DNA from: Escherichia coli
GTDB taxonomy: Bacteria; Pseudomonadota; Gammaproteobacteria; Enterobacterales; Enterobacteriaceae
Reading direction: 5' to 3' (one strand)
Assembly (NCBI RefSeq): GCF_046105845.1
Contig: NZ_CP151004.1
Length of the DNA: 64,000 nucleotides
Shown piece after piece: positions 5,299 to 13,405 of this stretch (the stretch's first letter is position 1; the number at the start of each line of letters is the position of its first letter). The notes beneath the pieces are model-generated. The model ran no database searches. It saw only the letters and a list, made by a program, of their open reading frames with translations, and had not been told where the DNA came from. The position numbers were made by a program, and so were the translations under genes.

Positions 5299-6486
5299 TC
5301 AACAAAGCGCGGGCTGCCCCCACGGTCTTGCACGAATTCCTTTTAACATCAGCACCCACGCAGCAATAATCACCAACGCTAAGATGATAAACAGCGAGGA
5401 AGGCGGCAGGTTGGTTAGCACTACGCCACTCACTAATGGGTTAATCGCGGCACCAAGCCAGCCTAAAGACTGGGCGGAAAAATAGCTGGCTTTCATTCCT
5501 GGCGGCGCAATATGGTCAATCAACATATACTCGCCCGGCGCATAAATGATTTCACCGACAGTAAATACCGCAGCTGACATACCCCACAATAGCAGGCTGT
5601 TGCCGGAAAAAATAAAACCGACCAGACCGATGACGAAACAGAGGGTGCCTGCTGTCATCAGCGTGCGGATGTTAGCCGGGTTAAGTCGCCGGCCCACGGA
5701 ATATTGCAACGTAACTACCATGGCAGCATTCACTGGAAGAACAACCGCGACCACCTTTTCGGCAAAATCCCCATCAGCAATCACCATCACATATTGTGAA
5801 ATGCATGAAGCAAATGCGCCGCTAACAAAAGAAGCCAGAAAGCCAGAGCAGGTAAACCACAACAGTGCTTTATCTTGTAATAAAACTTTCGGCGACCAGG
5901 CACTGGCTGTTTCCGTGGCGATGATTTTCTCGCTGCGCTTTACCCAAATTTGAATGAAAAGCATGGGAAACGCGGAACAGATAGCTGCCAGCCAAAAGGG
6001 CAGATTGATGCTCTGCATCACCAACAGCGTGCCGAGCGGCGGACCGATGGTCCAGCCAATGTTGAGCATGGTGTAGTTGATTGAGAAGATTTTCGTTTTG
6101 CTGGTGGACGAAAGATTGTCGGCAAACCAGGCTTTCAACACAGTAGCAAAAACGGAATAGGCGCAGTTAATGAGGGCAAAAAAGAGCACCACCAGCGTCA
6201 CGTTATTCACTAAAGGAATGGCAATAAAACCGCAGGCGAAGGCGGTAATTGCCAGTAACATATAGCGTTTCTTGTCGAACTTATCCGCCAGGATACCAAA
6301 ACCGAGGCTAAAAACGACGCCAATAGTGAGCGCAATTGTCATCGCATAACCGATTAGATCGACACTCAGGCTGTACTGGCGACTCAAGTAAATGGTCATA
6401 AACGGCAGCGTAGCGCCGCGTCCGATGGTTAATAACAACGACGAGGCAAGAAGGGCGCTGGTAGAGCGTCGTAGGGATAAGTTCAT
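5299..6486 (-). CDS. ydeE: MFS transporter (dipeptide/arabinose exporter family)
   Basis: 395-aa ORF, multi-TM MFS-like sequence from MNLSLRRSTSALLASSLLLTIG; matches YdeE. Confidence 0.92.
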   Translation of the reverse strand: MNLSLRRSTSALLASSLLLTIGRGATLPFMTIYLSRQYSLSVDLIGYAMTIALTIGVVFSLGFGILADKFDKKRYMLLAITAFACGFIAIPLVNNVTLVVLFFALINCAYSVFATVLKAWFADNLSSTSKTKIFSINYTMLNIGWTIGPPLGTLLVMQSINLPFWLAAICSAFPMLFIQIWVKRSEKIIATETASAWSPKVLLQDKALLWFTCSGFLASFVSGAFASCISQYVMVIADGDFAEKVVAVVLPVNAAMVVTLQYSVGRRLNPANIRTLMTAGTLCFVIGLVGFIFSGNSLLLWGMSAAVFTVGEIIYAPGEYMLIDHIAPPGMKASYFSAQSLGWLGAAINPLVSGVVLTNLPPSSLFIILALVIIAAWVLMLKGIRARPWGQPALC

Positions 6487-6680: not shown

Positions 6681-7580
6681 ATGTCGCGAAAAGATGGGGT
6701 GTTGGCGCTACTGGTAGTGGTCGTATGGGGGCTAAATTTTGTGGTCATCAAAGTGGGGCTTCATAACATGCCACCGCTGATGCTGGCCGGTTTGCGCTTT
6801 ATGCTGGTTGCTTTTCCGGCTATCTTTTTTGTCGCACGACCGAAAGTACCACTGAATTTGCTGCTGGGGTATGGATTAACCATCAGTTTTGCGCAGTTTG
6901 CTTTTCTTTTTTGTGCCATTAACTTCGGTATGCCTGCTGGTCTGGCTTCGTTGGTGTTACAGGCACAGGCGTTTTTTACTATCGTGCTTGGCGCGTTTAC
7001 TTTCGGTGAGCGACTGCATGGCAAACAATTGGCGGGGATCGCCTTAGCGATTTTTGGCGTACTGGTGTTAATCGAAGATAGTCTGAACGGTCAGCATGTG
7101 GCGATGCTCGGCTTTATGTTGACCCTGGCGGCAGCATTTAGTTGGGCGTGTGGCAACATCTTCAATAAAAAGATCATGTCGCACTCAACGCGTCCGGCGG
7201 TGATGTCGCTGGTAATCTGGAGCGCATTAATCCCAATCATTCCCTTCTTTGTTGCCTCGCTGATTCTCGATGGTTCCGCAACCATGATTCACAGTCTGGT
7301 TACTATCGATATGACCACCATCTTGTCTCTGATGTATCTGGCGTTTGTGGCGACAATTGTTGGTTATGGGATCTGGGGGACGTTACTGGGACGCTATGAA
7401 ACCTGGCGGGTTGCACCGTTATCGTTACTGGTGCCCGTAGTAGGACTGGCAAGTGCGGCACTATTGTTGGATGAACGCTTAACGGGTCTACAATTTTTCG
7501 GGGCGGTGCTCATTATGACCGGGCTGTATATCAATGTATTTGGCTTGCGGTGGCGTAAAGCGGTAAAGGTTAGAGGCTAA
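6681..7580 (+). CDS. eamA: Cysteine/O-acetylserine exporter (DMT/EamA family)
   Basis: ORF 6660..7580; conserved start MSRKDGVLALLVVVVWGLNF at 6681 gives 299 aa as in EamA/YdeD. Confidence 0.93.
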   Translation: MSRKDGVLALLVVVVWGLNFVVIKVGLHNMPPLMLAGLRFMLVAFPAIFFVARPKVPLNLLLGYGLTISFAQFAFLFCAINFGMPAGLASLVLQAQAFFTIVLGAFTFGERLHGKQLAGIALAIFGVLVLIEDSLNGQHVAMLGFMLTLAAAFSWACGNIFNKKIMSHSTRPAVMSLVIWSALIPIIPFFVASLILDGSATMIHSLVTIDMTTILSLMYLAFVATIVGYGIWGTLLGRYETWRVAPLSLLVPVVGLASAALLLDERLTGLQFFGAVLIMTGLYINVFGLRWRKAVKVRG

Positions 7581-7585
7581 ACCAT

Positions 7586-7629
7586 ACGCACAGAATGTGA
7601 TGTCAGCACTCTGTGCGTCTGCTTTTATC
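7586..7629 (+). terminator. eamA terminator: 9-bp stem (acgcacaga / tctgtgcgt) followed by a T-rich tract
   Basis: Hairpin plus gcttttat; the T-tract overlaps the stop codon of the convergent GntR-family gene (7625-7627). Confidence 0.55.
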
Positions 7630-8323
7630 GCGGGAAAAAGTACTTTACCTGGAACTCGAAAATATTGCTGTAAAGTAACGAATAATCCAGCGGAATAGAG
7701 TTACTATCCACAGCCTGGGTCTGAATTTTAAGTATGGGATCCCGTGGGCTGATCCGTAAAATACTGGCGATTTCTGGGGTAGGAAAAGTAGGGGAGAAAG
7801 TTTCAAAGGTGCCAATGATTTTGATCCCGCATTCGTTCTCAATATACGAAAATTTGGATTTTTGCATATGTGCTACGGTTAAATCAGGAAAACGTGCCAC
7901 TGACATCCACGTTTCTTCTAATTGTGCTGCATTATCCTCAATGAATCGCAGTCTCTTTATGTAATAAACCTGCTCACCAGTCACTAAATTCAGCTCAGTC
8001 GCAATAGGGGGAGAAGCATCCTGCACTTCAAATTTCATAATCTGACTTCCTGCCTCCTTGCCGCTTTTATGCGCAATTTCACTGAAGCTGTTCATGTGAT
8101 CAATGTGTGCAACAAAATTCTTTTTTTGAATGTATGTTCCTGAACCATGCTTTCTATGAATAACTCCTTCGCCTTCCAGCAAGGATAATGCCTTACGCAG
8201 GGTATTACGCGAAACATTATAACGAACAGCGAGTTCAGCTTCTGACGGCAACAAATCACCAACATGCCATGAATAGCCATTGATCTCGGATTTAAGTAAG
8301 CGGGCAATCTTTTGAAAAATCAC
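7625..8323 (-). CDS. GntR/HutC-family transcriptional regulator (N-terminal wHTH + UTRA effector domain)
   Basis: 232 aa; the segment LPSEAELAVRYNVSRNTLRKALSLLEGEGVIHRKHGSGTYI is a typical GntR HTH. Divergent from the PTS operon. Absent from K-12 by synteny (from memory). Confidence 0.85.
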   Translation of the reverse strand: MIFQKIARLLKSEINGYSWHVGDLLPSEAELAVRYNVSRNTLRKALSLLEGEGVIHRKHGSGTYIQKKNFVAHIDHMNSFSEIAHKSGKEAGSQIMKFEVQDASPPIATELNLVTGEQVYYIKRLRFIEDNAAQLEETWMSVARFPDLTVAHMQKSKFSYIENECGIKIIGTFETFSPTFPTPEIASILRISPRDPILKIQTQAVDSNSIPLDYSLLYSNIFEFQVKYFFPR

Positions 8324-8437
8324 TTTTGCACCTTTTAAGAGCCATTGAAAACAAGGGGTTGAGTCCTGATTGGTTTATCGTATGGCCGAGTCGTTTAATT
8401 ATTACCCTGATGTTGAACAACTTTATTGCTGTATTAC

Positions 8438-8520
8438 TGTGATCAATGTACCAGGACGTATAGCTACTGCGGGATATGATATTTACACAATGTAATCTGT
8501 TATATACCAGTAAGGGAAAA
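8438..8520. promoter_or_regulatory. Divergent promoter region with a CRP-like site (TGTGAtcaatgTACCA, ~8438-8453) and a near-palindromic HutC-type operator candidate (CTGTTATATACCAG, ~8507-8520) just upstream of the EIIB start
   Basis: Motifs read from sequence. Compared with CRP consensus TGTGA-N6-TCACA and with HutC-family dre-like palindromes (tGGTATAtACCa); both assignments are inference. Confidence 0.3.
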
Positions 8521-8521
8521 T

Positions 8522-8833
8522 ATGAAAAAGATATTGTTAGTTTGCGCTGCGGGCATGTCAACCAGTATGCTGGTTAAACGTATGATTGATCATGCTAACG
8601 CTATTTCACTTGAAGTTAATATTTCCGCATTGGCGATTGCAGAGGCTAAAGGGAAAATTAAAAATAACGAAGTTGACGTTGTTTTACTTGGCCCGCAAGT
8701 TCGCTTTCAGAAACCAGAGATTGAAGCTGTTGCACAGGGGAAAATGCCTGTAGCTGTTATCGAGATGAAAGACTATGGCACCATGAACGGACAGGCAGTT
8801 CTTGAATTTGCGATGAAACTACTGCAAGAGTAA
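8522..8833 (+). CDS. PTS EIIB component, lactose/cellobiose family
   Basis: 103 aa; MKKILLVCAAGMSTSMLVKRM carries the phospho-cysteine motif typical of Lac/Cel-family IIB. Confidence 0.9.
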   Translation: MKKILLVCAAGMSTSMLVKRMIDHANAISLEVNISALAIAEAKGKIKNNEVDVVLLGPQVRFQKPEIEAVAQGKMPVAVIEMKDYGTMNGQAVLEFAMKLLQE

Positions 8834-8947
8834 GAATCTAATATTATTAAACTATTACCTGAACTAACTTTTCACACATCATAAAATGGATATGGCATAC
8901 ATGCTTTATTGGGATGTATAAATATCCAGAACAGCAGGTATAAAAAA

Positions 8948-9819
8948 ATGGGATTAATGGCCTCATTCGAACGTGGAATGGAACGTTTTCTTGTTCCAGT
9001 TGCTATCAAGTTAAACTCACAAAAACATGTTGCAGCGGTGAGAGATGGATTCGTTTTTACGTTTCCAATTATTATGGCAAGTTCATTAATTATATTAATT
9101 AATTTTGCCATATTATCGCCAGACGGTTTTATTGCCGGATTACTGCATCTGAATAGCATTTTCCCCAACCTTGAAAAAGCACAAGCTATTTTTACTCCGG
9201 TAATGAATGGTTCTGTAAATATCATGTCAATTATGATTGCTTTCCTGGTCGCCAGGAATATGGCGATTAGCTATGAGCAAGATGATCTTTTATGCGGATT
9301 AACGGCAATAGGAGCATTTTTTATTGTTGGGCCGCTCAACACGGCACTACCTGGGGCGCGCCATATCCGATTACCTGGACTTCTATTAATGATGCATTCG
9401 CCAACTGCGGCGGTTCAGGTATGACGTTGGGGTTATTGTTGGCTATTTTTATCGCTTCTAAGCGTGCGGAATACCGTGATCTGGCAAAAATGTCATTTAT
9501 CCCCGGTATTTTCAATATCAATGAACCGATAATGTTCGGCCTTCCTATTGTACTTAACCCCATCATGATGGTGCCGTTTATTCTGGTTCCCATTGTTAAC
9601 TGTGCCATTGGTTACTTCTTTGTTTCGATGGAAATTATTCCACCGGTTGCTTATGCCGTGCCCTGGACTACGCCCGGACCTTTAATTGCTTTCCTCGGAA
9701 CCGGGGGAAACTGGCTGGCGTTACTGGTGGGTTTTTTATGTTTAGGTGTGGCGACAATGATCTATTTACCTTTTGTTATTGCCGCCAACAAGGTCAATAA
9801 CATGACAACTAACGGATAA
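8948..9819 (+). pseudogene. PTS EIIC component, lactose/cellobiose family, disrupted by an internal deletion with frame change
   Basis: Two overlapping ORFs in different frames (8909..9424 and 9292..9819). The first resembles an EIIC N-terminus (...[29 protein letters not shown]...), the second an EIIC C-terminus (...CGGSGMTLGLLLAIFIASKRAEY...IYLPFVIAANK). Combined coding potential is about 290 aa against ~430-450 aa for this family. Confidence 0.7.
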
Positions 9820-9840
9820 TCCCATTTACACAGGAAGGAG

Positions 9841-10158
9841 ATGTTGATGTTTGCAGATGAAGAACTTGTTATGGAGTTACTGGTCAACGCAGGACAGGCT
9901 CGTTCTGATGCGATGGAAGCCATACGTTGTGCCGGGCAAAAAGACTGGCAGGGCGCAACTCAGCTAATGGCCAGTTCTGAATGCGCCTGTCTTCAGGCGC
10001 ATAAGATTCAGACCGCGTTAATTAGTCAGGATGAAGGCTGTGGCAAAATAGAAGTTAATTTAATTCTGGTTCATGCACAGGATCATTTGATGAATGCAAT
10101 ATTATGCCAGGATTTAGCCAGGGAAATTATTTCATTAAGAAAAGAGCTCCATGCCTGA
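9841..10158 (+). CDS. PTS EIIA component, lactose/cellobiose family
   Basis: 105-aa ORF with helical EIIA-Lac/Cel-like sequence (MELLVNAGQARSDAMEAIRCA...). The start may be the second ATG at 9847, which has better spacing from GGAGG. Confidence 0.85.
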   Translation: MLMFADEELVMELLVNAGQARSDAMEAIRCAGQKDWQGATQLMASSECACLQAHKIQTALISQDEGCGKIEVNLILVHAQDHLMNAILCQDLAREIISLRKELHA

Positions 10159-10210
10159 TTTTTTCCTCCAGTGCGATAGCTGGAGGAAATTATTACACTC
10201 TTAAGGATAA

Positions 10211-13349
<3,139 letters not shown>

Positions 13350-13376
13350 GACTTCAGGAAGATATTACGGAGATAT

Positions 13377-13400
13377 CAGGCTCTGTGATCAGAGCCTGAC
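13377..13400. terminator. Hairpin (tcaggctctg / cagagcctga, 10-bp stem, 4-nt loop) between the convergent GH1 gene and marB
   Basis: Perfect inverted repeat read from sequence; no long T-tract. Coordinates approximate. Confidence 0.5.
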
Positions 13401-13405
13401 AATAA

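Follow-up and report, generated by a model that had tools for sequence, protein, structure and literature searches.

The closest described counterpart of the region analysed here is the bgc beta-glucoside island of Escherichia coli, a bgcR / bgcEFIHA locus said to have been reported from strains i484 and CFT073 (c1955-c1960) by Neelakanta, Sankar and Schnetz in 2009 (Appl Environ Microbiol 75:2284). Expression of bgc was reportedly CRP dependent and under positive control by BgcR, a single base change is said to have made the bgc promoter independent of BgcR, and the locus reportedly occurs in E. albertii as well, where its presence was confirmed in the present analysis (L004). Another paper lists CFT073 c1955-c1960 as a variable gene cluster of the cellobiose PTS type. 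In the passages of PMC3585215 concerned with it, bgc/bgcR is described and BgcR is named as a positive regulator of the bgc operon, while a passage of PMC4488073 calls this operon cryptic in wild-type strains. Other papers citing bgc that were consulted give no detail on the promoter, and the name BgcR is absent from databases, all protein entries being annotated generically as 'GntR family'.

Regulators of the same family have been characterised elsewhere. NagR (YvoA), which like DasR is mainly a repressor, recognises half-sites GTGG/CCAC with six bases between them, and its base reading has been assigned to Arg38 for G-5, Arg48 for G-4 and Gly69 for G-7 (PMC4333415). BguR of S. pneumoniae and GmuR of B. 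subtilis are GntR repressors of cellobiose-type PTS operons with palindromic operators of the form TGT-N-TA-N-ACA (PMC3585215). Those operators overlap the -35 element and act negatively, and as in the locus studied here, a divergent GntR regulator stands by a lactose/cellobiose-family PTS and a phospho-beta-glucosidase. With regard to catabolite control, class II CRP promoters such as galP1 have the CRP site centred at -41.5 and the -10 hexamer at -12, a distance of 29.5 bp.

The window, a stretch of 64,000 nucleotides of E. coli DNA whose positions are used throughout, carries ydeE (5299-6486, minus strand), the O-acetylserine/cysteine exporter gene eamA (6681-7580, plus strand, according to the RefSeq annotation of the near-identical strain A37), bgcR (7625-8323, minus strand), the PTS EIIB gene bgcE (8522-8833, plus strand), which is the first gene of the operon and is preceded by the Shine-Dalgarno sequence AAGGGA at 8512-8517, and the remaining operon genes bgcF-bgcI-bgcH-bgcA (8948-13349, plus strand), located from annotation and by tblastn with the intact A37 proteins. 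The RefSeq gene order in A37 (99.6% identical) is GntR-family regulator, EIIB, EIIC, EIIA, carbohydrate porin and 6-phospho-beta-glucosidase, with marB, marA and marR next after the operon. Since this gene set and order fit the description given in the relevant passages of PMC3585215, the locus is identified as bgc/bgcR. The order bgcR / bgcE-F-I-H-A, the divergent GntR-type regulator, the variable presence among E. coli strains and the occurrence in E. albertii are all shared with the published operon. The region is thus the control region of an already described island, and the locus itself is already known.

Among 5426 complete E. coli genomes, the segment with the regulator and promoter is carried by 2497, at a locus flanked by eamA and marB. 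Genomes of the K-12 type, which are free of the island, match the window up to position 7570 only, within the last three codons of eamA; the gene ends with GTT AGA GGC TAA (VRG*) in the window and with GTG GGA AGT TAA (VGS*) in the K-12 type. The left island boundary is therefore 7570/7571, and the end of this identity delimits an island of about 7571-13403. Instead of the island, K-12-type genomes possess their own 38-bp spacer with a different hairpin ahead of marB. In some strains the island has an internal deletion by which bgcR and the end of the porin gene are joined; in other genera the cluster does not adjoin eamA or marB.

A preliminary, sequence-only reading had the stop codon of the regulator gene lying inside the T-tract of an eamA terminator, with no spacer at the left island junction. 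The stop codon TAA is indeed read at 7625-7627, at the end of a minus-strand reading frame covering 7625-8323, and it lies literally within a run of T, but no canonical terminator was found to which this run could belong. As for the junction, the claim was mistaken: because homology to the K-12 type ends at 7570, the hairpin and the entire 44-bp gap between eamA and bgcR are island DNA. This hairpin (7586-7618), located between the convergent genes, folds on both strands, with -20.7 kcal/mol (z -2.8) on the plus strand and -24.2 kcal/mol (z -4.1) on the minus strand, and shows few or no differences among E. coli strains with the island (kept in L001, L047 and L003, missing from L002). A terminator scan of 7400-8700 called no canonical intrinsic terminator, for which a G+C-rich stem should be followed directly by a U-tract. 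On the plus strand, the stem is followed by a 4-nt gap (CTGC) and then by just TTTT (7623-7626), and on the minus strand it is followed by UGGUUU. The hairpin may possibly act as a weak bidirectional terminator. No Rfam family was matched in 7400-9100 at E-values up to 1.

The gene bgcR encodes a protein of 232 residues and begins with a GTG codon, which aligned with the initiator methionine of 20 orthologues. Its attribution to the GntR/HutC group, already made from the reading frame, was borne out by precomputed Pfam assignments of representatives 97-98% identical to BgcR, in which a GntR winged helix-turn-helix (PF00392) is combined with a UTRA domain (PF07702), the arrangement of the HutC subfamily. 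The NCBIfam models PhnF, TreR and HutC also matched, none with a score reaching its equivalog cut-off. B. subtilis NagR/YvoA, YydK and DasR were the best PDB matches and are the closest solved relatives, so that protein family and fold are common to BgcR and to NagR and DasR. The recognition helix SRNTLRKA was invariant in all BgcR orthologues. Among the residues that read bases in NagR, Arg48 and Gly69 have retained equivalents in BgcR (Arg39 and Gly60). The position of Arg38, in contrast, is occupied by alanine in Escherichia (Ala29), by lysine in most orthologues and by valine, isoleucine or asparagine in the Salmonella clade. BgcR also differs from the mainly repressing NagR and DasR in that it is reported to be an activator.

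Conservation of the control region was evaluated with one genome per species, by an alignment-based scan that yielded about 38 loci with a BgcR orthologue (39-86% identity), to which five further loci were added through exact-protein look-ups. In most of them the regulator gene is divergent from the EIIB gene across a gap of 186-200 bp, and in some it is divergent from the gene for EIIC or for the glucosidase. The gap in the window has the 198 bp (8324-8521) previously attributed to it. MAFFT alignments and alignments anchored on TGTGA displayed the same succession of conserved blocks, namely the Shine-Dalgarno sequence of the regulator gene, AAAACA, GTTCAtTTt, TTGAACaaCT, TAACTGTGATC and aTTAa..T, separated by essentially unconserved sequence. 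The first of those beyond the Shine-Dalgarno sequence, delimited as AAAACA-N4-GTT (8348-8360) in the anchored alignment, for which 27 orthologous promoters were used, lies near the 5' end of bgcR and may form part of the promoter or leader of this gene. When the conserved blocks were read as -35/-10 pairs of bgcR or bgc promoters, no arrangement gave acceptable spacing or hexamers.

The best conserved promoter element, maintained in more than 10 genera, was the CRP-type site TGTGATCAATGTACCA (8438-8453, centre 8445.5), which had been noticed as CRP-like from the sequence of the window. Scored by mismatches to the core TGTGA-N6-TCACA, it matches at 8 of 10 positions; by itself such a match is at chance level, matches with up to two mismatches numbering 22 in the window against 29 expected from shuffles. 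The position of TGTGA was constant in 29 of 31 orthologous promoters, at 113-115 nt from the start codon of the regulator gene (105-106 nt in two Erwinia), and TGTGA(T/C)C was invariant there. The site was also invariant in 10 E. coli alleles. Its right half was more variable, with 4 of 5 consensus bases in Salmonella, Citrobacter, Enterobacter and Erwinia (several clades reaching 9 of 10 overall) and 1-2 of 5 in Kluyvera and Raoultella (three to four core mismatches), where binding of CRP would consequently need help.

A second element stands in constant relation to this site. Of the 29 orthologous promoters bearing TGTGA, 27 have a TAnnnT hexamer 37-42 nt beyond the T of this motif, as TATGAT in E. 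coli (8475-8480, plus strand) and E. albertii and as TAAAGT, TACAGT, TAAGTT or TAACAT elsewhere; a simple promoter scan did not call the window copy. From the centre of the CRP site to the first base of the hexamer the distance was 29.5 bp in 27 of 29 promoters. Within Escherichia both elements, the CRP site and the hexamer, are conserved along with the bases directly around them, in contrast to the diverged stretch in between. As this spacing is that of class II CRP promoters, we infer that the bgc promoter belongs to this class, with its -10 hexamer at 8475-8480, a start near 8487 and the CRP site centred at about -41.5. In common with galP1 and similar promoters, it has no recognisable -35 element; it differs from them by the degenerate right half of the CRP site and, according to the literature, by the need for a second, regulator-dependent input.

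It could be argued that the protein binding the invariant TAACTGTGATC block is BgcR or another factor, and that the likeness of this block to a CRP half-site is incidental. The weak right half-site in many genera would agree with this view, as would the chance level of core matches with two mismatches in the window and the conservation of the flanking TAAC beyond what CRP would require. However, TGTGATC is the consensus half-site of CRP, the right half rises to 4 of 5 in several clades, the hexamer lies at precisely the distance known from class II CRP promoters, and bgc expression is reportedly dependent on CRP. A factor other than CRP is, in consequence, very improbable as the reason for this conservation. 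The catabolite-control half of the initial reading, with TGTGATCAATGTACCA as a candidate CRP site, is well supported by these comparisons. In the mechanism that we favour, CRP would bind TGTGATCAATGTACCA at a class II promoter and RNA polymerase would use TATGAT (8475-8480), starting near 8487.

Upstream of the CRP site lies a split inverted repeat of the form GTNCA-N16-TGNAC, represented in the window by GTTTA (8393-8397) and TGAAC (8414-8418). Its half-site starts are 21 bp apart, and its halves are centred at about -92 and -71 from the predicted start. In 33 of 38 modules, G[TG]NCA and T[GA]NAC were offset by precisely 21 bp and kept a constant distance to TGTGA; their information content in the alignments of orthologous promoters was high, and the repeat was conserved across more than 10 enterobacterial genera. 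GTTTA is a C-to-T variant common to the window and E. albertii, most genera having GTTCA. The 38 modules include second copies, which in Cedecea, Buttiauxella and related genera drive bglA; these follow the regulator gene, point towards the glucosidase gene and retain a remnant of the ribosome-binding site and start codon of the regulator gene. Since the blocks of the repeat fit no -35/-10 pair, they more likely form a protein-binding site, with BgcR as the obvious candidate for its ligand. The split repeat is accordingly proposed as a candidate BgcR site on the strength of its conservation and spacing. We know of no characterised HutC operator that is split in this way, with half-sites at a distance of 21 bp.

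A different BgcR operator had been suggested at first, immediately upstream of the bgcE ribosome-binding site, and an imperfect palindrome, CTGTTATATACCAG (CTGTTAT and ATACCAG), was found there at 8497-8510, 11 nt ahead of the bgcE ATG at 8522. Read as CTGT-TATATA-CCAG, it has half-sites CTGG and CTGT, where the dre operators of NagR and DasR have (G/C)TGG (GTGG in the NagR structure), together with their 6-bp half-site spacing, and it shows one mismatch to the dre-type consensus CTGGTNTANACCAG. Of the bases contacted in NagR operators, G-5 occurs in both halves, G-4 in one and G-7 in neither. Owing to the correct spacing and to these guanines at -5 and -4, the resemblance to HutC-family operators is real, as the sequence-only reading had proposed. 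Dinucleotide-preserving shuffles of the intergenic region gave contrasting chance levels depending on the property considered: 29% contained a 14-mer palindrome with 6 of 7 pairs, but only 0.045% (p about 5e-4, or 4.5e-4) a 14-mer with at most one mismatch to CTGGTNTANACCAG, and 1.6% (p 0.016) the 12-mer version of this match. Unlike the dre operators, which lie over the promoter, the palindrome would be part of the leader, at about +11 to +24 of the predicted transcript, which is a repressor position.

Its conservation turned out to be restricted to E. coli and E. albertii, and lack of conservation in orthologous promoters is what the sequence-only reading had named as refuting it. It showed no variation among 10 E. 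coli alleles and matches at 13 of 14 positions in E. albertii, where the outer bases are kept on one side while the 11 nt upstream of it diverge. Invariance within E. coli is not significant, because only about 10% of the intergenic positions vary, and polymorphism is too sparse in this species to test whether a 14-bp site is under constraint. Neither the dre consensus with up to four mismatches nor a loose TGK-N6-MCA palindrome was matched at that place in 29 other orthologous promoters, all outside Escherichia, and the BguR/GmuR-type palindrome was likewise not found in promoters of BgcR orthologues outside Escherichia. At the homologous position, the Salmonella/Citrobacter/Enterobacter clade has an element of A and T only that resembles TTTAATATATTAA.

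According to the classical view, BgcR would be a repressor of the HutC type, its dimer sitting on 8497-8510, directly ahead of the ribosome-binding site, and blocking initiation or transcription there until released by a phosphorylated beta-glucoside, with CRP contributing catabolite control. The single mismatch to the NagR/DasR consensus at the correct spacing (PMC4333415), repression of cellobiose-type PTS operons by the relatives BguR and GmuR through similar operators (PMC3585215), the near-invariance in both Escherichia species and the crypticity of the operon in wild-type strains stated in the PMC4488073 passage are consistent with such a scheme. Against it, the passages of PMC3585215 on bgc present BgcR as a positive regulator, and the palindrome is missing from all orthologous promoters outside Escherichia despite the invariant helix SRNTLRKA. 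Furthermore, the residue equivalent to Arg38 is alanine, G-4 is available in one half-site only and G-7 in neither, and the AT-rich core is common to the AT-only element found at the same place in the Salmonella clade. Thus, while catabolite control was upheld, the repressor part of the proposed layout was at odds with the reported positive role of BgcR and with the unconserved palindrome, and we consider classical repression unlikely.

For three reasons, the palindrome does not appear to be the operator of the BgcR family: it is confined to Escherichia although the recognition helix is invariant; BgcR has alanine at the position of Arg38, the reader of G-5 among the dre-like guanines; and the palindrome is at a repressor position in a system whose regulator is reported to be positive. 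That it constitutes the main BgcR operator is doubtful. That it is a functional HutC-type site in some other capacity or in this one is a tentative proposition, which we would entertain without leaning towards it.

The opposite view would deny the palindrome any regulator-binding function, an A/T-rich leader being flanked by CTG and CAG by chance, with BgcR control exerted entirely upstream of the promoter. This would fit the sequence TTTAATATA(T/C/A)(T/C)AA, devoid of the outer G/C, that the Salmonella/Citrobacter/Enterobacter clade has at this place, as well as the frequency at which palindromicity alone arises in shuffles and the non-significant invariance within E. coli. The rarity of a dre-type match that includes the outer CTG/CAG, in contrast, speaks for function, and so does the maintenance of 13 of 14 positions in E. 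albertii next to diverged sequence. Absence of function is a plausible explanation, but one that we hold to be somewhat less than probable.

Considering the evidence jointly, it is fairly probable that this bgc control region comprises a class II CRP promoter at which BgcR acts positively, and that the conserved regulator site is more likely the split repeat than the palindrome. BgcR, positive according to the literature, would act through 8393-8418 rather than through 8497-8510, and CTGTTATATACCAG, in the transcribed leader, would be a lineage-specific, perhaps auxiliary and possibly negative BgcR site in Escherichia.

How a HutC-type protein might use so wide a repeat can be envisaged from NagR, in which effector binding displaces the DNA-binding domains by a distance of the order of 70 angstrom (PMC4333415). 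Half-sites 21 bp apart are separated by about 70 angstrom, or two helical turns. Given this agreement, a splayed dimer with bound effector could occupy both half-sites and activate transcription jointly with CRP. One may go further and picture BgcR as an unusual HutC activator, splayed on GTNCA/TGNAC at 21 bp and, in its closed form, repressing from the palindrome in Escherichia. The scheme as a whole is quite improbable; if it were true, one protein would switch between a repressing site in the leader and an activating site at the split repeat.

If the split repeat is the BgcR site, it would represent a non-canonical binding mode for a HutC-family protein and would explain activation by a member of a family made up mostly of repressors. 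The sole mildly new item of this analysis is the split repeat with its rigid spacing, which may be a non-canonical site of a HutC activator. The practical value is modest and lies in a corrected annotation (a known bgc island, a regulator reported as positive, a boundary within eamA) and in a testable promoter map with a CRP site in class II register, a predicted -10 hexamer and start, the split repeat and an Escherichia-only dre-like palindrome.

Further dre-like or related sequences were also considered. A search of the island and of 320 kb of orthologous loci gave no second dre-like site. A recurrent match, GGGGTATAGACCAC, was discarded as a coding coincidence, because it falls within the EIIC gene, in conserved coding sequence, and does not occur in E. 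coli. The BguR/GmuR-type core TGTNTANACA has a counterpart with one mismatch in TATTTACACA (8480-8489), which was likewise rejected: one such match would be expected from chance, and E. albertii has not retained it.

Contrary to the published operon, the one in the window is decayed, with bgcF and bgcH broken. By comparison with intact alleles, bgcF (EIIC, 8948-9819) has suffered a 451-bp internal deletion with a frameshift, by which residues 128-277 are missing, and the porin gene bgcH is frameshifted near 11750. The intergenic allele of this strain is rare, only 15 of 2509 records having at least 99% identity to it. Still intact are bgcR, the promoter, bgcE, the EIIA gene bgcI (9847-10158, plus strand) and the 6-phospho-beta-glucosidase gene bgcA (11910-13349, plus strand).

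Comparison of the window with orthologous loci L005-L038 and L055-L058 recovered a split inverted repeat of the form G[TG]NCA-N16-T[GA]NAC in 33 of the 38 regulatory modules. Its 21-bp spacing was exact and its distance to the CRP half-site TGTGA was fixed. In the window, the two halves of the repeat lay at 8393-8397 and 8414-8418, and the left half in Escherichia was GTTTA, replacing GTTCA.

The whole regulatory module was also present in a second copy, at about 4700-5100 in L015, L021, L024, L027, L028, L029 and L031, located 3' of the regulator gene and facing the 6-phospho-beta-glucosidase gene. This second copy contained the two halves of the repeat along with the CRP half-site, and it retained vestiges of the Shine-Dalgarno sequence and GTG start of the regulator gene; the regulatory cassette has thus undergone duplication and reuse. 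A dre-like string, GGGGTATAGACCAC, resembling the operators of NagR/DasR-type regulators, was recurrent within the EIIC coding sequence of orthologous loci from many genera, about 375 nt from the gene start (e.g. 2969-2982 in L015), and was absent from E. coli. This string probably reflects conserved codons and not an operator.

In Kluyvera cryocrescens (L009), an IS5-like ISKpn26 element was inserted at TTAA directly before the TGTGA position, roughly 100 bp 5' to where the regulator gene starts, so that the regulator and split repeat lie on one side of the element and the CRP site and operon on the other. In E. coli strain BH100 (L003, 3226-4015), an internal deletion had removed the promoter, bgcE, bgcF and bgcI, and had joined bgcR, of which residues 70-232 were retained, to the 3' end of the porin gene (its final 98 codons).

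Within E. coli, the intergenic allele of the window (8324-8521) was rare, as only 15 of 2509 records reached an identity of at least 99%; most records were 96-98% identical to it. Among the other alleles, one (L049) was altered at the base directly preceding TGTGA and another (L052) carried a single-base deletion after TTGAACAAC.

The bgc operon is decaying in the window strain, with bgcR and the promoter still intact. The EIIC gene bgcF (8948-9819) displayed a 451-bp internal deletion and a frameshift, residues 128-277 being lost, and the porin gene bgcH was frameshifted at about 11750, near residue 513.

The left boundary of the island fell within eamA (window 7571-7580, corresponding to 2672-2681 in the island-free K-12-type genome L002). 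The EamA C-terminus was VRG, or VQRG-type variants, in island-bearing strains and VGS in K-12-type strains, in the genomes of which both the 38-bp spacer and the hairpin, shared with marB, are distinct. A second island-specific hairpin (TCAGGCTCTGTGATCAGAGCCTGA, 13376-13399), flanked by bgcA on one side and the stop codon of marB on the other, lay at the right island boundary, as a counterpart mirroring the hairpin of the left end.
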